33,248 bases of DNA from the NCBI GenBank assembly GCA_001803565.1, contig MHDQ01000302.1, forward strand, positions 1 through 33,248. Reading direction: 5' to 3'. The notes below the pieces were generated by a model that saw only the letters and a program-made list of their open reading frames with translations, was not told the origin of the DNA and searched no databases. A program made the translations under genes and the position numbers. The DNA is from Nitrospinae bacterium RIFCSPLOWO2_12_FULL_45_22 (GTDB lineage: Bacteria > 2-12-FULL-45-22). Below, in pieces: positions 1 to 11,134 of this stretch (the first letter of the stretch is position 1; every line of letters starts with the position of its first letter).

Positions 1-769
1 AGAAGGAAGATATATTTATTGCGTAATAGGGACGGATCAAGAGAGAAACTTTGGCCTTATGGGTATTGGCGGTCGGGGGGACGAGGTATATACCCTTTGT
101 TATCAAGGTCAGGCCGCGGTCATCAGTAATTCTCCTGTCACGCAATATCCTATCTCCCGGGAGAATATCCTGGCCCATCAAAGGGTCATGGAAAGGGTAA
201 TGGGGGATTATACTGTTTTGCCGGTGAGGTTTGGGACCATTGCAGAGAGTAAAGACGGGGTTTCTGCCGAGCAGAGGATCAAAGAGAAGGTTTTACGGGG
301 AAGATATAAGGAATTAGAGGGTCTACTCCAGACAATGGAGAACAAGGTAGAGCTTGGCGTAAAGGCCTTATGGGCTGATATGAGTTTGATCTTTGGGGAA
401 ATCATTCAGGAAAACAAGGAGATTAGAATACTAAAGAAAAAGATAGAAGCCAGACCCCCTCTCCAGACCCGTGATGAGAGAATTGCCCTGGGAGAGATGG
501 TGCAATCCAGATTGGAGGCAAAAAGGGAAAAGGAGGGGAAGGCTCTCTTAACTGCCCTAAAAAAGATAGCAGCCGATTACCGGACCAATAAGCCCCTTGG
601 CGACCGGATGATAATGAATGCTGCCTTCTTAGTAAATACTGATGCCATGGAAGATTTCGATAATCAAGTAAATAAATTAGCGGCTGAAGGTCAGGAGAGA
701 ATAAAGCTTAAGTATGTCGGCCCGGTACCGCCCTGCAATTTTGTGGATTTAACCGTTACCTGGGAATAA
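1..769 (+). CDS. gvpF: Gas vesicle protein GvpF/GvpL family, 5'-partial (continues upstream of the window)
   Basis: ORF 59..769 carries GvpF/L hallmarks (EVYTLCY, TVLPVRFGTI). The in-frame translation of nt 2..58 (GRYIYCVIGTDQERNFGL) aligns with the RYIYCIVESNDRLSLGRIGIGGNEVYTI core of the paralogue at 5568..6773. The true start therefore lies off-window. Confidence 0.85.
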   Translation, partial: EGRYIYCVIGTDQERNFGLMGIGGRGDEVYTLCYQGQAAVISNSPVTQYPISRENILAHQRVMERVMGDYTVLPVRFGTIAESKDGVSAEQRIKEKVLRGRYKELEGLLQTMENKVELGVKALWADMSLIFGEIIQENKEIRILKKKIEARPPLQTRDERIALGEMVQSRLEAKREKEGKALLTALKKIAADYRTNKPLGDRMIMNAAFLVNTDAMEDFDNQVNKLAAEGQERIKLKYVGPVPPCNFVDLTVTWE

Positions 770-781
770 AAGGAGGAGAAG

Positions 782-1054
782 ATGGCAAACCAAGAAGATA
801 TGGGCTTAGGTTTCCTGGACATATTATTCCCCTTTTTCATTCCTCTAAAGGGGCTGATGTGGATTGGGGGAAAGGTTAAGGAAATGGTAGAAAGGGAAAT
901 GACTGATGAACCCAAAATTCACGAAGAGCTGCTAGAACTCCAGATGCGCCTTGAGATGGATGAGATAACGGAAGAGGAATATGAAAAAAGCGAGGGCAAA
1001 CTAATGGAGAAATTAGAAGAGATCAGGAGATATAAAGAAAAGGAAGGGGGGTGA
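782..1054 (+). CDS. gvpG: Gas vesicle protein GvpG
   Basis: 90 aa; LGFLDILFPFFIPLKGLMWI plus an acidic ELLELQMRLEMDEITEEEYE motif typical of GvpG; RBS aaaggagg 6 nt upstream. Confidence 0.85.
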   Translation: MANQEDMGLGFLDILFPFFIPLKGLMWIGGKVKEMVEREMTDEPKIHEELLELQMRLEMDEITEEEYEKSEGKLMEKLEEIRRYKEKEGG

Positions 1055-1406: not shown

Positions 1407-1673
1407 ATGGTTTTATCTTTAGATCAATTAATTCTACGGGCCCGGGAACAACTCAACAAAATCACCGGCTTAAAATTGTCCACTACCCTGGGAGTCACCA
1501 GGCATAATGGTACCTGGGTTGTCTCTGTGGAGTTGGTGGAAAAACATTCCATCCCTGATGGAATGGATATCCTGGCAACTTATGAGGTCAATATGGATGA
1601 AGAGGGTACCCTTGTCGATTTTAAGCGTAAAAGGCTCCGGAAACGGATAGATACCGAGGACGCAGAGGCATAG
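1407..1673 (+). CDS. gvpO: Gas vesicle protein GvpO
   Basis: 88 aa; GVTRHNGTWVVSVELVEKHSIPDGMDILATYEVNMDEEG matches the conserved GvpO core (…GxWxVxVEVVExxxxPDxxDILxxYEVxLDxxG…); strong RBS aaggagg. Confidence 0.85.
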   Translation: MVLSLDQLILRAREQLNKITGLKLSTTLGVTRHNGTWVVSVELVEKHSIPDGMDILATYEVNMDEEGTLVDFKRKRLRKRIDTEDAEA

Positions 1674-1756: not shown

Positions 1757-2680
1757 ATGCCACATCAAGGGCCAGGCTTTTTAGAAAACCAGGAGCTGCA
1801 ATTGATACTCTTCGGGGGGAAAGGCGGGAGTGGCAAGACCACCTTTGCGGCAGCCACTGCAATATATCGAGCCCAATCCAGCAAAAATAAAAAAATACTG
1901 GCCGTATCTACTGACCCGGCCCATTCCCTGGGGGATAGTTTCGGGGTCTTCATTGGGGACGAGCTTATACCCGTCAACGGTATAGAAAATCTGTGGGGGC
2001 TAGAGATAAATGCCCCGAAATTGCTGGAAGATTTCAAACAGAGACACGAGAAGGCAATCAAGAAACTGGCTGATCGTGGCACTTACTTTGACCAACAGGA
2101 TATAGCCGATTTCTTCTCCCTCTCATTACCCGGACTGGATGAAGTTATGGCCATCATAGAGATTGCCAATATCCTTAAGAATGGACAGTATGATCTGATT
2201 ATACTGGATACGGCTCCTACCGGGCATACCATTAATCTATTGGCCCTGCCCGAACAGATGGAAAAGTGGATCAAGGTCTTCGATCTGATGCAGGAAAAGC
2301 ACCGCTATATGGGGACGCATTTCACCGGTAGGAGGTATGTCAAAGATGATGCCGATGAGTTTATTGAGATGATGACCAGGGATATCGGCAGGGTGAAAAA
2401 CCTTCTTATGGATAAAAAAATAACGGAGTTTGTCCCGGTTACTATTCCAGAACCAATGAGTATATATGAGACCGAACGGCTTTTGGCGGTTTTGAAAGAT
2501 TATAAGATTTCTGTTAAAAGTATTATTGCTAACCGAGTTATTATTGATGAGGGGGTAGATTGTCCTTCCTGTCTGTCCAGAATAAGAGAAAAGGAGAAGT
2601 ATATAAGAGAGATGGAGAGAAGTTCGCTCTTTATAATCTCCTTAAAATGCCTTTATTCCCTGCCGAAGTTAGGGGGATAG
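1757..2680 (+). CDS. ArsA/GET3-family P-loop ATPase (single-domain), copy 1
   Basis: Deviant Walker A LFGGKGGSGKTT, switch region DTAPTGHT, C-terminal CPSC pair. ORF opens at GTG 1709, but the ATG at 1757 has RBS aaagga and is the likelier start. Confidence 0.85.
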   Translation: MPHQGPGFLENQELQLILFGGKGGSGKTTFAAATAIYRAQSSKNKKILAVSTDPAHSLGDSFGVFIGDELIPVNGIENLWGLEINAPKLLEDFKQRHEKAIKKLADRGTYFDQQDIADFFSLSLPGLDEVMAIIEIANILKNGQYDLIILDTAPTGHTINLLALPEQMEKWIKVFDLMQEKHRYMGTHFTGRRYVKDDADEFIEMMTRDIGRVKNLLMDKKITEFVPVTIPEPMSIYETERLLAVLKDYKISVKSIIANRVIIDEGVDCPSCLSRIREKEKYIREMERSSLFIISLKCLYSLPKLGG

Positions 2681-2730
2681 GGACCCTAAAGAAATTTATT
2701 GAGATATTGCAAGGAAATGGGGAAACATTC

Positions 2731-3756
2731 ATGAGCCCTCGGCTCACAAAGGATGATGAAAATATGTGGGATAGGAATGTACCGCATATCGATAGGCGGG
2801 GTTTTCTAACCCCGCAAAAACCATTTTCAGGAAAAGCCCCCTTAAATCGTGAATTCATCCTTTTTGGGGGCAAAGGCGGGGTAGGCAAGACTTCCCTGGC
2901 TGCCGCTACGGCCTTATGGCTAGCCAGAGAGGAGCGTAGCAAAAAAGTCCTGGCCTTCTCTACCGACCCGCCCATAGGGGATAAGATTACCCCTATAGAA
3001 GAGGTAGACAATCTTTATGCCCTGGAGATAAATGCCGCTAAATTACTGGAGGATTTTAAAGAGGAATACAGAGATGATATAAATGAAATGTTTGATAGGT
3101 TCTTGGCCGGAGGAATAGATGTCAAGTTTGATCGGGAGGTAATGACTGAGCTTATTTCCCTTGCGCCTCCTGGGTTAGATGAGATCATGGCCCTGGATAA
3201 GATTATAGATCTCAGAGATGCCCGGGAATTTGATCTGTTTATCCTGGACTCGGCTGCTACTGGACATCTACTCCGCTTCCTGGAACTGCCTGATCTGATC
3301 CGGGATTGGTTAAAAACCCTCTTCAAGATAATATTGAAATACAAGGGGATGGTACGCCTAACCAAGGTGGCTGAAAATTTGCTAAAACAGTCCAAAAATA
3401 CAAGAAAGATACAGGAAGCGCTTACAGACCCCCTCAGGAGTGAGTTTGTGGCAATAACCATCCCTGAGGCCATGGGTGTGTTGGAGATGGAAAGACTTCT
3501 ATCAGGCCTTAGTAGACTGAAGATACCCTGCCACCATATCATTATCAATATGGTCATTCCCCCAACGGATTGTAGTTTTTGCTCCTTCAAACGGAATGAA
3601 CAACAAAAGTATGTTAAGGCAATAAGAGATAACTTTGCCCGGTATCTGGTTTCCGAAATTCCCTTATTCCCCCATGAAATAAAGGAGAGAGAAAGATTGA
3701 ACGATCTTGCCGCGATGATGTATGATCCGGTCGAGGAGGTAATAAAAAGCGCCTGA
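2731..3756 (+). CDS. ArsA/GET3-family P-loop ATPase (single-domain), copy 2, with N-terminal 'GFLTPQK' module
   Basis: LFGGKGGVGKTS Walker A, DSAATGHLLRF switch, CSFCS pair. ORF opens at TTG 2560 overlapping copy 1; the ATG at 2731 with ggggaaa RBS is preferred, and the start is uncertain by about ±85 nt. Confidence 0.8.
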   Translation: MSPRLTKDDENMWDRNVPHIDRRGFLTPQKPFSGKAPLNREFILFGGKGGVGKTSLAAATALWLAREERSKKVLAFSTDPPIGDKITPIEEVDNLYALEINAAKLLEDFKEEYRDDINEMFDRFLAGGIDVKFDREVMTELISLAPPGLDEIMALDKIIDLRDAREFDLFILDSAATGHLLRFLELPDLIRDWLKTLFKIILKYKGMVRLTKVAENLLKQSKNTRKIQEALTDPLRSEFVAITIPEAMGVLEMERLLSGLSRLKIPCHHIIINMVIPPTDCSFCSFKRNEQQKYVKAIRDNFARYLVSEIPLFPHEIKERERLNDLAAMMYDPVEEVIKSA

Positions 3757-3811: not shown

Positions 3812-4180
3812 ATGGTCCTAGAAGCCAGCAGAAACTCCAGCAGTACCTTAGTAGATGTAATAGATAGGATACTGGATAAGGGATTGGTGATCAATGCCGA
3901 TATAACTGTTTCCCTGGCTGGAGTAGAGTTGCTGGGTATCAAGATAAGGGCGGCTCTGGCTTCTTTCGAGACCGCAGCTAGATATGGCTTAGAGTTTCCC
4001 TCGGGGACTAATTATGAAACCTCAGCCTGGCAAGAAGCCCGGATAGGTAAAGAGAATTGTCCGCAGTGTGATAAGAGGACGCCGGTAGAGGAGCTTATTA
4101 GCACCGGCTGCCCCTGGTGTGGATGGATAAGTGCCAAGGCCAAGACCCTGGCCCAAAAAGCCGCCCCATCAATGATGTGA
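3812..4180 (+). CDS. GvpA/GvpJ/GvpM-fold gas vesicle protein fused to a C-terminal zinc ribbon
   Basis: N-terminus [39 protein letters not shown] is the GvpA/J/M signature; C-terminus has CPQC…CPWCGW. Confidence 0.8.
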
Positions 4181-4222
4181 GGCAACTTAATTACTGGTCT
4201 GAGAGGTAAAGAAGGTGTCGAA

Positions 4223-4555
4223 ATGGTTTTAGAATTCTTTTCCATCCCAGGAGCCCTTTTAAATGAAATTGATAAATATGCCTGTCAGCAGAGGGAAAGA
4301 GAGGCCAGAAATACCTACTGGATAAGGTGTCCCAATTGCGGAAAGCAGGTAGTAAAAAGGGAATTGATCAAGAAGGGGTGTTATGTATGCAACTGGCAGG
4401 GGACTGAAGATAAAATTAAACCGGCCAATCAAGAAACCAGGGATAGGCCAAATCCTTATAAGACAAATTGTCCCCGCTGCGGAGCCCGGGTGATAACCGA
4501 CCAACTACAAGAAAATGGGTGTTATCTCTGTGGATGGAAAGCTCCAAAGGATTAG
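4223..4555 (+). CDS. Double zinc-ribbon protein
   Basis: 110 aa; CPNCG…CYVCNW and CPRCG…CYLCGW, two ribbon units. Confidence 0.65.
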   Translation: MVLEFFSIPGALLNEIDKYACQQREREARNTYWIRCPNCGKQVVKRELIKKGCYVCNWQGTEDKIKPANQETRDRPNPYKTNCPRCGARVITDQLQENGCYLCGWKAPKD

Positions 4556-4558
4556 AAG

Positions 4559-4630
4559 GATAAATCCAAAGTTCAAAATCCAGATGCCAAAATATTTGAG
4601 CTTTGACATTTGGGCTTTTATTTTTAAGGA
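4559..4630 (+). promoter_or_regulatory. Conserved ~70-nt upstream element, copy A (precedes the Hsp20/gvpH-like gene)
   Basis: Near-identical to 5482..5553 (about 4 mismatches over ~72 nt); contains TTGACA at 4603..4608 and a T-rich tract. Confidence 0.7.
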
Positions 4631-4638
4631 TTAGAAGG

Positions 4639-5148
4639 ATGGATGAGATGGATAGAGAAGAAGGAGAAAAAGAGATAAAAAAATCTGAAGAAGACGAGGA
4701 TCGGGAGCCTGAAGGGATAGCCGGTAATGTGCTTAAGGGATTAGGTGATATTATTCCTGGGCTGGGTGGCTTGATCAAGGGCTTGAAGAAATCGGCGGCC
4801 TTCCAGGATAGGTTGAAAGTGATAGATGCGGAGGTTGAGGCCAGGTTAAAGGGGAAAGGATTGACTGAAAAGGAAGGAGAAATCTACCGATCAAGACCGA
4901 CGGTTGCAACCCCTAAGGAGGTTCCAGTAGAGCTCTTTGATGAAGGAGATTATTGGAGGGTAATCGCGGAATTGCCCGGGATAGAAGAAAAGGATATTAA
5001 GGTTGATCTGGAGGGTGCCAGGGTATTCATATCTGTCAATAGCTCCCAGCGTAAATATCACCGGGAAATCAACCTGGCTTGTACCCCTAAAGGCGATCTC
5101 AAAAAAGTTTATAAAAATGGGATACTAGAGATCACTATAGAAAAATAA
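4639..5148 (+). CDS. gvpH: Hsp20/alpha-crystallin-family protein (GvpH-like)
   Basis: ACD motifs WRVIAELPGIEEKDIKVDL … YKNGILEITIEK; start chosen at MDEMDREEG with RBS agaagg (ORF 4603 begins inside the repeat). Confidence 0.8.
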   Translation: MDEMDREEGEKEIKKSEEDEDREPEGIAGNVLKGLGDIIPGLGGLIKGLKKSAAFQDRLKVIDAEVEARLKGKGLTEKEGEIYRSRPTVATPKEVPVELFDEGDYWRVIAELPGIEEKDIKVDLEGARVFISVNSSQRKYHREINLACTPKGDLKKVYKNGILEITIEK

Positions 5149-5156
5149 CGAAGATT

Positions 5157-5480
5157 ATGCCTATTGATATTGATCAGGATAATTTGCGACATGGGGTCTT
5201 AGGTCTAGTTCTAGCCCTGGTGGAGATAATCAGAGATGCGTTGAGGCTCCAGGCCTTCAGACGCATGGAGGGAGGCAGCTTGACCGAGAAAGAGATTGAA
5301 CGATTAGGAGAGGCCTTGTTGGACCTGGATACCGCCATTGACCAGATCAAAGAAGAGCAAGGGATTACTGAGGCGGTTCAGGGTGTGAGAGATGGCCTGG
5401 ACAGCATTGTAGATGAAGTTATAGACCAGTTTGTTAACCCAGAACGGTGGGAAGAAAAAGCCAGAGAAAAGCGGGCTTGA
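5157..5480 (+). CDS. gvpK: Gas vesicle protein GvpK
   Basis: HGVLGLVLALVEIIRDALRLQAFRRMEGGSLTEKEIERLGEAL closely matches the conserved GvpK core. Confidence 0.9.
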   Translation: MPIDIDQDNLRHGVLGLVLALVEIIRDALRLQAFRRMEGGSLTEKEIERLGEALLDLDTAIDQIKEEQGITEAVQGVRDGLDSIVDEVIDQFVNPERWEEKAREKRA

Positions 5481-5481
5481 T

Positions 5482-5553
5482 GATAAATCCAAAGTTCAAA
5501 ATCCAAATGCCAAAATATTTGAGCTTTGACATGTGGGGTTTTTATTTTTAAAG
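5482..5553 (+). promoter_or_regulatory. Conserved ~70-nt upstream element, copy B (precedes the second gvpF/L)
   Basis: Near-identical to 4559..4630. Confidence 0.7.
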
Positions 5554-5567
5554 AAGGGATATTCAGA

Positions 5568-6773
5568 ATGGAGAGGGAAGTATCGCCGCTAAAGGTGTTA
5601 ATAGAGAGAATAATCAAAGATGAGATAGAGGATATGGCTGGGGAGATCAAGTCCCTGGTAAAGCAAACTGTCAAGAGCAGTTTTGTCTCAAAAATTAGAG
5701 AATCAGTGAGAAATGCTATATCAGAGACAATAGAAGAAATATTGCCAGAGACTGGGAAGCCCGGAATTATAACTTGCAGCAATGAAACTCAGTGGGATAA
5801 AGATTTTCCCCATCCATCCTATGAATTGGTACCCGGCGATAGGCAGGGTTTTCTAACCCCGCAAAAAGAATTTGTAACCGTTCACCCACACATTGCCCAC
5901 GATGTCATTCTGAGCGAAAGCGAAGAATCTCTTTCGCCGGAGACCCTTCGCCCCGCTCAGGGTGACAGTCCCAGTGAACGGTTACAAGAATTTAATACCG
6001 GGGATGGCAATAATAGCGGGAGATATATCTATTGTATTGTGGAGAGTAATGATCGGTTAAGCCTTGGCCGGATCGGTATAGGAGGTAATGAGGTGTATAC
6101 TATCCCCTATAAAGACCTGGCTGCCCTAGTCCACAATTGCTCCACCGAACCTTACGCTTCAGAAGATAGTGAAATAGTCAAGGGATGGGTAATGACGCAT
6201 CAAGAAGTCTTGGAAAGGACAGCTCAGAGATTTAGTACCGTGATACCTTTAGGCTTTGACACTATTATCAAAGCTGTAAACGGTCAAACCCCTGAGCAAA
6301 ACCTGATAGAGTGGCTAAAAGGAGATTATGAGAATCTCAAGGTAAAGGTAGCGAGGCTGAAAGGAAAGGAGGAGTATGGGGTACAGATCCTTTGGAACCC
6401 CAAAATTATCGGGCAAAAAATTGCCCAGATCACCCCTGAAATTAAGAAATTAGATGAGGATATAAAATCGAAGCCCAGAGGAATGGCCTATATGTATAAA
6501 CAGAAGCTAGAAGATGCCTTAAAAACTGAGCTAGAAAAGGCGGCTGATCGTTATTTTAAGGAATTTTATGAACAGATTAAGCCCTGGGCAGATGATCTGC
6601 GGGTAGAAAAGACCAAGAAGGCCGAGGAGGGCAAGCATATGCTCATGAATCTCTCCTGCCTGGTGGATAAGGAAAAATATAAAAAGTTGGGTGAAGAACT
6701 GGAGAGGATTAACAATATGGATGGTTTTTTTGTACGCTTTACCGGCCCCTGGCCACCCTATAGCTTTGTCTAG
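5568..6773 (+). CDS. gvpL: GvpF/GvpL-family protein with ~150-aa N-terminal extension carrying the 'GFLTPQK' module
   Basis: C-terminal ~250 aa paralogous to feature 1 (RYIYCIVE…EVYTIPY…). N-terminal extension has WDKDFPH…GDRQGFLTPQKEF. Start taken at MEREVSPLK with RBS aagaaggg. Confidence 0.8.
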   Translation: MEREVSPLKVLIERIIKDEIEDMAGEIKSLVKQTVKSSFVSKIRESVRNAISETIEEILPETGKPGIITCSNETQWDKDFPHPSYELVPGDRQGFLTPQKEFVTVHPHIAHDVILSESEESLSPETLRPAQGDSPSERLQEFNTGDGNNSGRYIYCIVESNDRLSLGRIGIGGNEVYTIPYKDLAALVHNCSTEPYASEDSEIVKGWVMTHQEVLERTAQRFSTVIPLGFDTIIKAVNGQTPEQNLIEWLKGDYENLKVKVARLKGKEEYGVQILWNPKIIGQKIAQITPEIKKLDEDIKSKPRGMAYMYKQKLEDALKTELEKAADRYFKEFYEQIKPWADDLRVEKTKKAEEGKHMLMNLSCLVDKEKYKKLGEELERINNMDGFFVRFTGPWPPYSFV

Positions 6774-7063: not shown

Positions 7064-7130
7064 GGTTGTAGTGGCAGAGCTTGCTCTGCTTGGGTGCTTA
7101 TCGGGATGTCGAGCAAGCTCGACCACTACA
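7064..7130. repeat. REP-like palindromic element: two inverted copies of a 23-nt unit (TTGTAGTGG + GAGCwwGCTC hairpin) flanking a 21-nt spacer
   Basis: 7064..7086 ttgtagtggcagagcttgctctg and 7108..7130 tcgagcaagctcgaccactacaa (reverse-complement orientation). The differences between arms are compensatory within each internal hairpin. Confidence 0.65.
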
Positions 7131-7139
7131 AAAGGAAAC

Positions 7140-8984
7140 ATGGGTAGAGTAGTAGGGATTGACTTAGGGACTACTAATTCAGTAGTAGCCATTATGGAGA
7201 GGGGAAAGCCTAAGGTTATACCTAATGCTGACGGTAACCCCTTGACTCCATCAGTGGTAGCCTTTACCCCGGATTGGAGACCTCTGGTAGGTCAGTTAGC
7301 TAAGAAACAGGCAACGGTAAATCCCGAAAAAGCCCTCTTTTCTATCAATAAAAGGATGGAGAGAAGTTCCTATGGGGAGAGGAATAATCCTGCTAGTTTT
7401 AACCAGATTATTACTTCTATCAAGAGACGGATGGGCTCTAACTATATAGTAAAGATTGATAACAGGGAATATACCCCCCAGGAGATCTCCAGCATGATCT
7501 TGCAAAAAATAAAGAGGGATGCAGAAGACTATCTGGGCGAAAAAATAGGGAAGGCCGTGATTACTGTGCCTGCTTATTTTAATGATAGCCAGCGCAAGGC
7601 TACTAAAGATGCTGCTACTATTGCTGATCTGGAAGTCATCAGGATTATTAATGAACCAACCGCAGCAGCCCTGGCTTATGGCTTAGACAAAGAAGATATT
7701 CATACCATTTTGGTTTGGGACCTTGGGGGTGGTACCTTTGATGTCTCTATTTTGGAATTAGGAGATGGCTTCTTTGAGGTTAAGGCAGTAAATGGCGATA
7801 CCCACCTGGGTGGGGATGACTATGACCAGCGAATTGTTAATTATTTAGCCGATGTTTGTCAAAAAGAGCAAGATATTGACCTCCGGCAAGATAGGATTAC
7901 CCTTCAGATACTGAAAGAAGTAGCCGAAAAGGCCAAGATTGAGCTCTCCTATGCCCTAACTACCAATATAAGTTTATCTTTGATTTACCAAGATGGTCTT
8001 AAGAACCCGGATATTATCCTGAGGAGGGAAGAGTTTAATGAGCTAACCGAGGATTTAAGAGAGCGAATGATACGACCAACGCAACAGGCCCTGGTTGATG
8101 CCAGGCTTTCTCCTGAGGATATTGATAGGGTGATCCTGGTAGGTGGGGCCACCAGGATGCCAGCGATACAGGAATTGGCTAAGACGCTCCTGGGCAAAGA
8201 GCCCTATAACCATATTGATCCAGACAAGATTGTAGCGCTGGGGGCCGCTATTCAGGCCGGTATTTTAACGGGGGAAGTTAGGAAAGTGACCTTGATAGAT
8301 GTTAATCCTTTATCTTTAGGCATCGAGACTATGGGCGGAGTATTTACCAGGATCATTGAAAGAAATACACCTATTCCTACCTCTCAAAGCCGGGTCTTTA
8401 CTACTGCTCGGGACAATCAAACAGAAGTAGATATCCATGTCTTCCAAGGAGAGCGGGCGATGGTCAGACATAATATGCCCCTGGACAGGTTCCGCCTTAC
8501 CGGTATCGAACCTCAACCCCGAGGCGAAGCCCGCATCGAGGTAATTTTTGATATTGATGTCAATAGTATTGTCCAGGTGTCAGCTATAGACCTTCAGACG
8601 GATAACCAGCAAAAGATAGAGATTAACTCGTTTGGGAGCCTGCTGGAAGAAGGGATAGACCAGATGGTTGAAGAAGCCAGGATATATGCTGAGCAAGATA
8701 GGAGAGAGCGAGAAAAAATAGAGGCAAGTATCCGGGCTAATAGTATGATTTGTGCGGCTGAGCACATGATTAAAGAGGTGGAGGAAAAAATTAGTAACTC
8801 CCTCCGGGAAGGGGTAATCGAGATTGAACAAGCTATACTCCTGGTTAAAGAGGCCCTGGCCAGTAGTAATTACCAGGAAGTAAAATCCCGAACACAAGAA
8901 TTAGAAAGGCTTATTCAGGCCAGGGAGAGAGAAAGGAGGAATAAAAAAAAGGAGATAAAGGAAGAGGAGGCGGTACTAACTTGA
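7140..8984 (+). CDS. dnaK: Hsp70 chaperone DnaK (divergent, stand-alone; no grpE/dnaJ adjacent)
   Basis: [45 protein letters not shown], substrate-binding domain and helical lid present. ORF opens at GTG 7071 but the conserved N-terminus begins at ATG 7140. Confidence 0.9.
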
Positions 8985-9232: not shown

Positions 9233-9541
9233 ATGGATTTTCTAGGAAGGAGCAAATGGGAGACGTTAGAGGAAAAAATAGTAGATATTGTTGATGGGAA
9301 GAGACGGGTGCTGGTCATTGCTGAGATGCCCGGTGTATCCGAGGAGGAGATCAATATAGATATTGCCGGTGATGTCCTTTTGCTTCTGGCTTCCCATAAG
9401 GATAAGAAGTATTCCAATGAGATATTCCTACCAGCCAGAGTAAAAAGAGAAACTATGAAATATATCTATAAAAACGGCCTCTTAGAGATCACTATAGACA
9501 AAGAACTAGCTCGGAAACCAGGTCAATTAAATTATATTTAG
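9233..9541 (+). CDS. Hsp20-family small protein, paralogue of the GvpH-like protein
   Basis: VLVIAEMPGVSEEEINIDI … YKNGLLEITIDK, C-terminus nearly identical to 4639..5148; RBS aggagg. Confidence 0.75.
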   Translation: MDFLGRSKWETLEEKIVDIVDGKRRVLVIAEMPGVSEEEINIDIAGDVLLLLASHKDKKYSNEIFLPARVKRETMKYIYKNGLLEITIDKELARKPGQLNYI

Positions 9542-9587
9542 GACGCAGATTTCCGCAGACATTTTAGTGAGGAGTAAGCAGTGAGCC

Positions 9588-9620
9588 GTGAGCAGTAACT
9601 GCTAATTCCTTACTGCTCAC
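9588..9620. terminator. Hairpin between convergent genes (11-bp stem gtgagcagtaa/ttactgctcac, 11-nt loop), followed by TTTACAAAAT
   Basis: Inverted repeat read directly; lies between the hsp20 stop (9541) and the stop of the minus-strand redoxin gene (9755). Confidence 0.5.
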
Positions 9621-9754
9621 TTTACAAAATCTGTGTTCATCTGTGTCCAAAATGAAAATCCCTATACTATCAACCTGGACTACTTTCTCCCCCCGCTAGA
9701 TAACAAGCGCCTGGCAGGGTGGGGAAAAAATATCCCGGGGGCGATGCAAGGCTT

Positions 9755-11134
9755 TTATTCCGGGATCCTGGCCAGGATATCTTTATATGCTTTAAGGGAG
9801 TTGATTATTTTGTGGGTCTCATTCAGCCCTTCCAGGAGCAGTTTAGACGACTGGGTAGCACCGGTTATCCCATCTATATCTTCTTTGAGTGTTAATGGCA
9901 GTTTTTGGTTAGCTCGCTGAGTAACCCTCTGGAGGAAGTCCGGGGCGCTTATAAGCTCTCCATATAGATTTATATTTTCGATCAAGATAATGTTTTTTAT
10001 CTCTCCAGTGAGATCAAAGGTATAGACAAAGTGGACATTGGTGCAAACATCACAGAGGACATCTTTGAATACCTCCCGGGCGAGCACCTTCGCCCCAGTC
10101 TTATCCTTACCCAGATATACTGTATCCCCGTCCAGGTTGATCCTTTCAAACTTCTTAACCCCAGGGGCAGCCATCTCGAAATATCTCATTAATATATCCT
10201 CCGGGAGCTCTTCCCGAAAATAACTCTTTACCTTAACCAATACTGAAGCTACATTAGCCAGCGATACCTGATCGCTAATATATCTTATCTTACCTCTTTT
10301 GTTTATAATAAATACCCGGGGCAAATCCTTTACCCCATATAGGCGAGCCACTTCTTTGTTTTGGTCTACCAGGATAGGAAAATTCACATAATATTTTTTC
10401 CTGAATTCATTGACTTCGGCTGGCCTATCCCCCACGGCCACTCGAATCAAATCCACATCCTCCCGCCGGTAGGTACTATAAAGGGATTTCATTATCTCAA
10501 TAATCTGGCGGAGAGTCTCATCATGGATAGAAAGAAAGGTAAGGAGGAGGGTCTTTTTATTCAGTAGGTCTTTGAAGTTAAAAGTTTCTCCCTGACTGGT
10601 CTTGAGAGAGAAATCCGGTGGCCTATTCCATAAGTCTGCCCCAACAATCTCTTTTTCTACAATTATTCTGTCCAGAATAGATTTTAGCTCTTCATAGGTA
10701 GGCAACTTACCCCGGTATCTAATAGTCCCACTCCGGTCTATAATATCCACCAGGGGCACGGTAGCAACAAAATATTTTTTATACACTTCCTTTTTCGGGT
10801 CCGGTAGCATAAAAAACTTGGCCTTAAAGGCCTCTCTAAACTCTGAGGTCTCCTTCTCATCATTACCTATGGCCACCCCAATTACCTGCAAGTCTTTGTA
10901 TTTATGATAGATTTGGTTAACTTCATTAATCAGAGGGACATCTTCCCGACAGGTATGACAATACACATTAAAATGGACCAGCATTATGGCCTTCCCCAGG
11001 TACTGAGAAAGGATAAAGGGCTTCCCGTTAAGGTCTCTTAGGGTAAAATCAGGGGCCTCTGCACCTAACATATCAGCCATTGCTAGCCGCGGAAGAAATA
11101 GGAATATAAGTAATGCCAGCCAACCCTTTTTCAT
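9755..11134 (-). CDS. Exported protein: tandem thioredoxin-fold (TlpA/AhpC-TSA-like) domains + C-terminal FMN-binding (FMN_bind) domain
   Basis: Signal peptide MKKGWLALLIFLFLPRLAMA (start taken at M33 of the ORF). Domain 1 has CHTC. Domain 2 is paralogous but lacks CxxC. C-terminus has the DGITGATQSS FMN_bind signature. Confidence 0.75.
   Translation of the reverse strand: MKKGWLALLIFLFLPRLAMADMLGAEAPDFTLRDLNGKPFILSQYLGKAIMLVHFNVYCHTCREDVPLINEVNQIYHKYKDLQVIGVAIGNDEKETSEFREAFKAKFFMLPDPKKEVYKKYFVATVPLVDIIDRSGTIRYRGKLPTYEELKSILDRIIVEKEIVGADLWNRPPDFSLKTSQGETFNFKDLLNKKTLLLTFLSIHDETLRQIIEIMKSLYSTYRREDVDLIRVAVGDRPAEVNEFRKKYYVNFPILVDQNKEVARLYGVKDLPRVFIINKRGKIRYISDQVSLANVASVLVKVKSYFREELPEDILMRYFEMAAPGVKKFERINLDGDTVYLGKDKTGAKVLAREVFKDVLCDVCTNVHFVYTFDLTGEIKNIILIENINLYGELISAPDFLQRVTQRANQKLPLTLKEDIDGITGATQSSKLLLEGLNETHKIINSLKAYKDILARIPE

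Follow-up and report, generated by a model that had tools for sequence, protein, structure and literature searches.

The stretch of DNA considered here, the contig MHDQ01000302.1 of Nitrospinae bacterium RIFCSPLOWO2_12_FULL_45_22 (33,248 nucleotides (nt), hereafter the window), carries on its forward (+) strand, between positions 59 and 9541, the distal part of a gas-vesicle (gvp) gene cluster. The genes follow one another in the order gvpF/L, gvpG, an open reading frame (ORF) of 73 aa with four CxxC motifs, gvpO, the gene of a two-domain ArsA/Get3-like ATPase, an ORF of 122 aa, an ORF of 110 aa with again four CxxC motifs, hsp20, gvpK, gvpF/L, a gvpM-like gene, dnaK and a second hsp20 (table 1). 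The 122-aa product, in which the core of a minor gas-vesicle shell protein is fused to a zinc ribbon (GvpJ-ZR), and the 110-aa product encoded next to it, a free double zinc-ribbon protein (dZR), are the focus of what follows. A preliminary description of this DNA had proposed such a fusion for the ORF starting at 3812 and further zinc ribbons for those starting at 1059 and 4223; all three ORFs are present, on the + strand.

The ORF at 3812-4180 is most probably orthologous to gvpJ, the gene of a minor shell protein of gas vesicles. Its product matches the Pfam family Gas_vesicle (PF00741) over residues 12-50 with 62.6 bits (cut-off 25), as do 28 of its 28 aligned relatives, and core residues 3-59 align to the solved structures of GvpA (8gbs, E 1.6e-14) and GvpB (7r1c, E 1.4e-12). 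The best NCBIfam match is halo_gas_GvpJ (96.6 bits, below the cut-off of 125 of this haloarchaeal model), the GvpA and GvpM models scoring lower. The annotated gvpJ of Halobacterium salinarum aligns by tblastn with 60.7% identity, and only to window residues 9-69; the alignment stops at residue 69, and the product is probably a GvpJ orthologue with a tail unlike that of the model protein. This C-terminal domain, of about 45 residues, comprises a short helix, a Cys4 zinc ribbon, formed by CPQC (residues 83-86), 13 residues, CPWC (100-103) and GW, and a basic tail. Across 76 aligned sequences, the four ribbon cysteines (C83, C86, C100 and C103), W102 and W105 are invariant, and so are F62, P63, S64, G65 and W73 of the linker, the first 10 or so residues of which (to about 69) are common to canonical GvpJ. 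Among the other ribbon positions K88 and L95 are invariant; in the tail, S107 and A108 are invariant or nearly so, and K109, A110 and K111 are found in at least 90% of the sequences. In the AlphaFold 2 (AF2) model the ribbon has a strand-strand-helix(-knuckle) topology, with a predicted local distance difference test score (pLDDT) of 76-81, and a helix is placed at residues 71-77. A protein of 172 aa from an ENA metagenome (P0010) is a GvpJ-ZR with a tandem-duplicated linker-plus-ribbon unit (ELPSGTN...CPLC...CPWC twice), and its sequence indicates that linker and ribbon together form the domain that can be duplicated.

The preliminary description had itself named a frameshift or sequencing error at around 3990 as the event that could have created the fusion artificially, and the window does contain an indel elsewhere: its arsA carries a 1-nt deletion near 2614-2616 (GG, as compared with GGG in the near-identical contig L087), which splits into two overlapping ORFs a gene that is intact, with 666-676 aa, in contigs of the same species. 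The arsA split is either an assembly error or a strain-specific pseudogene and, because of this indel, sequence quality was worth checking; gvpJ-ZR is unaffected. Both CxxC pairs are present in 120 of 120 homologues, the best of 3,809 database matches to the 3812 product (72-99% identity; 113-129 aa, with one of 172 aa), and at least 23 contigs, each assembled independently, code for an identical 122-aa protein. Furthermore, the ribbon is found in both domains of life in all of the 80 loci which, being the best 80 of at least 568 GvpJ-related stretches (one genome per GTDB species; identity 66-84%), form the locus sample used throughout. The spacer between the CxxC pairs measures 13 residues in 80/80 loci, while TGT and TGC are used about equally at each of the four cysteine positions; the fixed spacer together with the synonymous variation of the cysteine codons indicates selection on the protein. 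RefSeq records of cultured organisms also encode the fusion. An origin by frameshift, assembly error or chance cysteines is thus ruled out for the site at around 3990, and as a general account of the fusion it deserves practically no credence.

The ribbon is not confined to GvpJ. A hidden Markov model (HMM) of the module, made from 105 distinct fused ribbons, recognizes each of the two ribbons in the 4223 product (i-E 1.5e-6 and 1.7e-8) and does not match the 1059 product; over all ORFs of the 80 loci it retrieves GvpJ-ZR, 27 long GvpM-like proteins, 22 free homologues of the 4223 product and nothing else. When the C-terminal 63 residues of the 3812 product were compared with 1.84 billion representative proteins, 47 matches were obtained at E <= 0.001, 42 of which are GvpJ-, GvpM- or dZR-type proteins or their fragments, the other 5 being spurious cysteine-rich repeats. 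At the sensitivity used, the module is specific to gvp clusters, and the ribbon of GvpJ-ZR is paralogous to the two modules found in the 4223 product. A grouping of all three ribbon ORFs of the window in one family was rejected, as the module HMM matches the 4223 product twice and the 1059 product not at all; the preliminary count of three zinc-ribbon ORFs was right in that all are real, but they are not of one kind, since the 3812 and 4223 products share paralogous modules and the 1059 product is an unrelated DZR protein. In comparisons with Pfam profiles, the 4223 product scores 32.9 bits against DUF7560 (PF24441, cut-off 27), the 1059 product 35.8 bits against DZR, and the fused ribbon 16.8 bits against DUF7560 (E 0.0055), which does not reach the gathering threshold of 27, with 24 of 28 family members matching DUF7560 at E <= 0.05 (best 3.3e-4).

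The free dZR has its cysteines at C36/39/53/56 (ribbon 1, residues 36-58, nt 4328-4396) and at C83/86/100/103 (ribbon 2, residues 83-105, nt 4469-4537). Its family comprises about 130 clusters at 90% identity; PF24441 is recorded for most members, four CxxC motifs are found in 116 of the 120 members listed and the eight ribbon cysteines are invariant in 110 aligned sequences. The proteins are named 'hypothetical protein' by NCBI and, by JGI, either the same or with automatic ribosomal-protein, RNA-polymerase or Zn-ribbon labels. Of 25 such ORFs, 18 lie no more than 150 nt downstream of gvpJ-ZR, and two distant relatives also lie in gvp clusters, directly after a Gas_vesicle gene of 118-125 aa. 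The AF2 model shows an N-terminal helix and two ribbons (pLDDT 80-90) separated by a disordered linker; a relation of the N-terminal helix to a GvpG segment was considered and dropped (hhalign probability 0.25%, E 0.24, not significant). The third architecture is that of GvpM, which in 27/80 loci is 240-400 aa long and has one or two GRAM/PH-like domains between its Gas_vesicle core and the ribbon module. These long GvpM proteins (in L024, L008, L022, L069 and others, and in L089 at 9467-10378) give Vps36-GLUE, GRAM and PH matches, with the ribbon usually terminal; PH-like domains on a gas-vesicle shell paralogue seem to be undescribed so far.

The 80 loci with a ribbon-bearing GvpJ span more than 15 phyla of bacteria and archaea, at least 80 species genomes being confirmed. 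Among the bacterial carriers are Desulfobacterota, Chloroflexota, Bacillota, Actinomycetota, Nitrospirota, Bacteroidota, Omnitrophota, Atribacterota, Verrucomicrobiota, Planctomycetota and Acidobacteriota, among the archaeal ones Methanophagales, Methanoregula, Methanotrichaceae, Thermoplasmata and Bathyarchaeia, and among cultured organisms Desulfoluna spongiiphila, D. butyratoxydans and Candidatus Formimonas warabiya. The aerobes Natronococcus occultus SP4, Natrinema zhouii and Streptomyces sp. SGAir0924 carry the fusion as well, on plasmids whose RefSeq records annotate it as 'gas vesicle protein' only. Related clusters thus keep zinc-ribbon ORFs at the corresponding places, and the absence of these ORFs from all relatives, which the preliminary description had allowed for, is ruled out; its statement that three zinc ribbons in one cluster are unusual holds against the model clusters, but the architecture as such is common. 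Minimal stand-alone blocks made up of gvpJ-ZR, (a gene for a hypothetical protein), gvpK, gvpL and a gvpM-like gene occupy positions 9001-11568 of L088 (N. occultus SP4 plasmid 2) and 9001-11594 of L089 (Streptomyces sp. SGAir0924 plasmid), with no gvpA, gvpN, gvpF or gvpG within 9 kb. Neither of these two hosts is known to us to form gas vesicles, and such minimal plasmid blocks suggest that the J-ZR/K/L/M unit is a separable module.

The same unit emerges from gene order. In the loci with enough DNA, the order gvpJ-ZR, gvpK, gvpF/L, gvpM is found in 46 of 65, and this block stands by itself on the Natronococcus and Streptomyces plasmids; GvpK is encoded downstream of gvpJ-ZR in 62 of 65. The block gvpJ-ZR, (dZR/hsp20), gvpK, gvpF/L, gvpM is a conserved unit. 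As to the rates of change, the median identities to the window proteins across the 80 loci are 81% for the GvpJ core, 72% for the GvpM core, 71% for the C-terminal domain of GvpJ (residues 60-112) and 69% for GvpK, then 52% for DnaK, 50% for ArsA, 47% for the DZR protein (1059), 45% for both GvpG and GvpO, 37-41% for GvpF/L and 34-39% for Hsp20. Because of these values, the fused ribbon can be said to evolve like the wall-forming cores, and unlike an accessory or regulatory add-on.

This has a bearing on a nucleic-acid-binding role, in which the ribbons would bind gvp mRNA or DNA, in the way the zinc ribbon of AccD does, and couple shell supply to expression, with the free ones as small regulators. 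The weak likeness to AccD (Zn_ribbon_ACC, 2e-6 for the 4223 product; 2f9i_B, root-mean-square deviation 2.1 over 35 residues) and that to ribosomal eL43 (E 0.0066) speak for it, together with the basic tail and the label 'RNA-binding Zn-ribbon' in source records, which is automatic only. However, the AccD and eL43 likenesses do not reach significance and are of a kind common to zinc ribbons in general, the module forms one polypeptide chain with wall-forming proteins and shares their slow rate of evolution, it was never seen fused to a nucleic-acid-binding domain (in the 80 loci or among the 47 matches in 1.84 billion representatives), and the window holds no Rfam element. The evidence favours a structural or protein-contact role of the ribbons over nucleic-acid binding, which we regard as highly improbable.

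How a ribbon on GvpJ could act is best approached from the vesicle wall. Each ribbon would bind one Zn2+ via its four cysteines and fold independently of the hydrophobic core, so that GvpJ and the long GvpM would end in a rigid, hydrophilic knob. The GvpA structures place the C-terminus at the outer side of the wall and, because of this, the ribbon would be expected on the cytoplasmic face. GvpJ, GvpM and GvpS have been reported from the bicones and not from the cylinder (PMC10903477), which makes a protein-binding knob at the nucleus or the cone the most likely role of the ribbon. Its slow evolution would imply a conserved contact with another slowly evolving component of the assembly, for which the candidates are GvpK, favoured above the others by synteny and described from Anabaena in a natural fusion with a GvpA-like domain (PMC10903477), the GvpA/J/M cores and a second ribbon. 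The free dZR, with two ribbons on a flexible linker, might serve as a bivalent adaptor, a cross-linker or a competitor for the site of the knob, and the contacts of the ribbons would operate in a chaperone-rich assembly line (Hsp20, DnaK, ArsA/Get3-like). Taken as a whole, this protein-binding knob has in our judgement an even chance of being correct; its descriptive part is nearly certain, while the mechanistic part falls somewhat short of even. A more specific version, in which the ribbons on GvpJ and GvpM form with the bivalent dZR a zinc-dependent clamp or lattice at the cone apex, possibly via GvpK, is speculative and rather unlikely.

The reported location in the bicones and absence from the cylinder (PMC10903477) would also suit a passive structural tag, that is a folded hydrophilic cap devoid of any partner, which keeps the very hydrophobic GvpJ and GvpM soluble until they are assembled or sterically excludes them from the tightly packed cylinder ribs and thereby restricts them to the cone tips. 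A domain as conserved as the core, the abundance of holdase-type chaperones in the cluster and the unrelated bulky C-termini of other GvpJ proteins, e.g. the six 21-aa repeats in Anabaena flos-aquae (PMC10903477), are in line with such a tag. What it leaves unexplained is why a free bivalent protein made of this module persists beside gvpJ, and why non-cysteine surface positions (K88, L95, W102, W105 and S107-K111) are conserved, and we consider it rather unlikely.

Several observations weigh against the protein-binding knob. Zinc binding, surface exposure and any partner of the ribbon are all predictions. AF2 gives only moderate confidence for the two models (mean pLDDT 65 and 70) and renders the core of the 3812 product, for which a helix-hairpin-helix fold like that of the GvpA wall would be expected, as helices, at low confidence in the monomer. 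A fold search of the two models in the PDB returned no match at E <= 0.001, generic zinc ribbons only. In favour of the knob, one strand-strand-helix-knuckle unit is common to all three ribbons (that of GvpJ and the two of dZR; pLDDT 76-90). Against it, free dZR is found in only 23/80 loci and evolves fast (median identity 39%), because of which it must be dispensable in many lineages. In the same-species contig L085, at 7985-8070 (corresponding to 4430-4535 of the window), about 75 nt of almost palindromic, AT-rich DNA stand in place of its second ribbon and leave a one-ribbon ORF of 77 aa; L085 is otherwise identical to the window in every base, L086 shows a stretch of N there, and the site of the second ribbon is either strain-variable or hard to assemble. 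The co-occurrence of dZR and ribbon-bearing GvpM (odds ratio 3.7, p 0.028) speaks for the knob, but by a statistic that ignores phylogeny. As an aside, the idea of free dZR as a stand-in for a missing GvpM ribbon was not supported, as the two co-occur rather than exclude each other.

These clusters encode other zinc and chaperone proteins as well. The 1059 product matches DZR (PF12773) over residues 16-61 (35.8 bits, cut-off 27.3) with cysteines at 16, 19, 30, 33, 41, 44, 57 and 60 (nt 1104-1238). The strong Shine-Dalgarno sequence of its ORF, AAGGGGGGTGA, overlaps the gvpG stop, and the ORF is translationally coupled to gvpG. Homologues occur in 13/80 loci, after gvpG or gvpO and with the motif CP.CG..WR[YF], and also in contigs of the same species; the ORF is real, cluster-associated and unrelated to the GvpJ ribbon. 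Free proteins of the DnaJ CxxCxGxG type (PF00684, 44.7-50.9 bits) are encoded in 28/80 loci, the window not being among them, and at least 52/80 loci have one or more zinc proteins beyond GvpJ-ZR, a lower bound because many loci are incomplete. Two-domain ArsA-like proteins (loci L003-L072) have one CxxC per half, at equivalent positions, in 19 of 21 cases; in the window these are CPSC, around 2561-2572, and CSFC in the second half. In Get3 dimers a zinc ion is bridged by a CXXC pair, and by analogy the ArsA pair may mark another zinc site and, perhaps, an ATPase that chaperones hydrophobic Gvp proteins in the manner of Get3. A fusion of GvpF/L with a DnaJ J-domain is encoded in L083 and L084 (1-930) and in L085 (1571-2638), that is in the same species just upstream of the window, and also in related clusters; J-domain GvpF/L, DnaJ-type zinc fingers and DnaK together look like a dedicated Hsp70 system for gas-vesicle assembly.

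Such an inventory brings up a redox or zinc switch, in which the Cys4 sites would lose zinc on oxidation or zinc limitation, in the manner of Hsp33 or DnaJ-type fingers, and gate assembly in response to oxygen or metal status. About six zinc sites are predicted in the cluster of the window, related clusters combine DnaK with the stand-alone DnaJ-type CxxCxGxG proteins, and the hosts are mostly anaerobes (sulfate reducers, Dehalococcoidia, methanogens, Bathyarchaeia). Nevertheless, cultured aerobes (N. occultus SP4, Natrinema zhouii and a Streptomyces) carry the fusion, the cluster encodes no redox partner or sensor, and sequence does not tell a labile from a structural zinc site, so that a switch of this kind is judged improbable. 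An anaerobe-only distribution, once entertained in its support, is contradicted by the Natronococcus, Natrinema and Streptomyces plasmids.

The features of the cluster are collected in table 1. In contigs encoding the identical 122-aa protein more cluster genes are seen upstream (for a CDC48-like AAA+ ATPase, the GvpF/L-J domain fusion and a 227-aa protein), and the window start therefore falls inside the cluster; gvpA lies further upstream, and so does, in related clusters, the gene of a GvpN-like AAA_5 ATPase. Outside the cluster the genes are those of an ordinary bacterial chromosome, among them the ones for RNase E/G, TsaD, radical-SAM enzymes and a Tad-type pilus. No Rfam family was matched anywhere in the window, and promoter and terminator consensus scans gave counts no higher than in shuffled sequence.

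Table 1. Features of the gvp cluster in the window, with the evidence for each assignment.
Feature	Position	Strand	Evidence
gvpF/L	59..769	+	PF06386, E 1.8e-57
gvpG	782..1054	+	PF05120, E 3.5e-22
DZR-type double zinc-ribbon ORF, 73 aa	1059..1280	+	PF12773, 35.8 bits
gvpO	1407..1673	+	PF05800, E 4.7e-18
two-domain ArsA/Get3-like ATPase, split by 1-nt deletion	1757..3756	+	PF02374 on both halves
gvpJ-ZR, 122 aa	3812..4180	+	PF00741, 62.6 bits; best NCBIfam match halo_gas_GvpJ, 96.6 bits
probable GvpA-fold core of gvpJ-ZR, residues 3-59	3818..3988	+	alignment to 8gbs and 7r1c
conserved linker of gvpJ-ZR, residues 60-82	3989..4057	+	invariant residues; AF2 helix 71-77
predicted Cys4 zinc-ribbon module of gvpJ-ZR, residues 83-105	4058..4126	+	invariant Cys, fixed spacer
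basic tail of gvpJ-ZR (ISAKAKT...)	4127..4177	+	about 6 residues conserved, variable after
free double zinc-ribbon protein (dZR), 110 aa	4223..4555	+	module HMM, two matches; DUF7560, 32.9 bits
hsp20 (start moved from 4603)	4648..5148	+	PF00011; NCBIfam archaeal Hsp20, E 8.4e-21; start from L085 and 67-nt repeat
gvpK	5157..5480	+	PF05121, E 1e-19
gvpF/L with N-terminal extension (start moved from 5526)	5568..6773	+	PF06386, E 2.3e-65; L085 gene model of 401 aa
gvpM-like, short, ribbonless, 85 aa	6776..7033	+	halo_gas_GvpM, 100.6 bits (cut-off 109)
dnaK (conserved start probably 7140)	7071..8984	+	PF00012, E 3.4e-210
second hsp20, cluster end	9233..9541	+	PF00011, E 1e-7

Four repeats were found in and around the cluster. 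A 33-nt inverted repeat, 94% complementary (1704-1736 and 9527-9559; 0 matches expected by chance), brackets the 7.8-kb block from arsA to hsp20, one arm lying between gvpO and arsA and the other over the stop of the last hsp20; it could be a shared operator, the boundary of an invertible segment or cassette, or a repeat element. A recombinase that would explain it was looked for, and not found, in 20 of the 22 ORFs that measure 120 aa or more and lie beyond the cluster on its downstream side (antisense overlaps excluded). A 67-nt direct repeat, 93% identical (4559-4625 and 5482-5548), directly follows the dZR and gvpK stops and contains a TTGACA box; because the TTG starts of the longest ORFs (4603 and 5526) fall inside this repeat, the true starts of hsp20 and gvpF/L are placed at 4648 and 5568. 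A 37-nt repeat, 92% identical (2790-2826 and 5837-5873), has an internal hairpin, GCGGGGTT/AACCCCGC, and stands in frame both in the interdomain linker of ArsA and in the N-terminal extension of GvpF/L, where it encodes DR(R/Q)GFLTPQK(P/E)F, a peptide that no ORF of the 80 related loci contains; the repeat may be a small palindromic insertion into coding sequence, specific to this lineage. Finally, a 21-nt inverted repeat, 90% complementary with a 24-nt loop (7066-7131), lies between the gvpM stop and the conserved DnaK start (7140) and could form a stem-loop controlling dnaK expression; compared with the CIRCE consensus, it gave no match.

The ribbon bears on gas-vesicle nucleation and on the roles of the GvpA paralogues GvpJ and GvpM, studied so far in few model clusters, although the finding alone does not resolve the nucleation question. 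Its four cysteines are a defined, mutable element with which to probe GvpJ and GvpM function, and the ribbon is a folded epitope with which to locate the two proteins on vesicles. It is, moreover, a sequence marker of a widespread chaperone-rich type of gvp cluster, which may matter for the transfer of such clusters to heterologous hosts as acoustic reporters. Should the clamp at the cone apex exist, zinc would be obligatory for starting gas vesicles in a large unstudied share of the prokaryotes that encode them, and the ribbon would be a natural, surface-exposed and engineerable handle on the vesicle tip; should the ribbon be an inert decoration, the finding shrinks to an annotation refinement.

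We know of no ribbon in the model clusters of Halobacterium, Anabaena, Bacillus megaterium and Serratia, and no published description of a zinc ribbon on GvpJ or GvpM, of free ribbon proteins of gvp clusters or of DUF7560 was found in a search that left subscription journals outside. A paper of 2010 had already pointed to ArsA homologues and Hsp20 in gvp clusters (PMC2963123). Neither DUF7560, an uncharacterized family of small zinc ribbons, nor DZR (PF12773), the thresholds of which are passed by the 4223 and 1059 products, respectively, has been assigned a function or linked to gas vesicles. The central CxxCxGxG zinc finger of DnaJ and the CXXC zinc bridge of Get3/ArsA are likewise chaperone-type zinc sites in clusters of this kind, but their motifs and folds are unlike those of the GvpJ ribbon and the module HMM draws no connection. 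In Methanothrix thermoacetophila, of a gas-vacuolate genus, a gvpG-gvpA-gvpM-gvpK-gvpLF cluster has been reported to be expressed (PMC10470525), the arrangement of which resembles, in gene order and not by comparison of gene sequence, that of the ribbon-bearing Methanotrichaceae/Methanothrix contigs L070, L081 and L082.

Among the characterized proteins, GvpJ of H. salinarum shares with the window protein the predicted GvpA-fold core, the GvpJ-type segment and the gvpK, gvpL, gvpM neighbourhood, but has no cysteine ribbon and an unrelated tail. GvpA and GvpB (8gbs, 7r1c) align to residues 3-59, but are about 70-88 aa long, with a short tail, and form the cylinder, whereas the window protein is a J-type paralogue with a predicted metal-binding appendage. 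In A. flos-aquae, GvpJ carries six 21-aa C-terminal repeats and GvpK a GvpA-like domain (PMC10903477), which provides a precedent for lineage-specific C-terminal additions to GvpJ and for the physical coupling of J-type proteins and GvpK, with the difference that a repeat array, found in cyanobacteria only, stands in place of the zinc ribbon. Haloarchaeal GvpC has a zinc-finger motif in its C-terminal domain (PMC9501494), hence a putative zinc-binding motif in a protein of the vesicle outer surface; as described, it is an unrelated alpha-helical repeat protein that reinforces the cylinder. The preliminary statement that canonical GvpA/J/M proteins have no metal-binding domain agrees with the ribbonless GvpJ of H. 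salinarum; among Gvp proteins at large, haloarchaeal GvpC shows that metal motifs do occur. Set beside these systems, the ribbon-bearing GvpJ is a widespread, as yet unnamed GvpJ subfamily with its companion families, rather than a new system.

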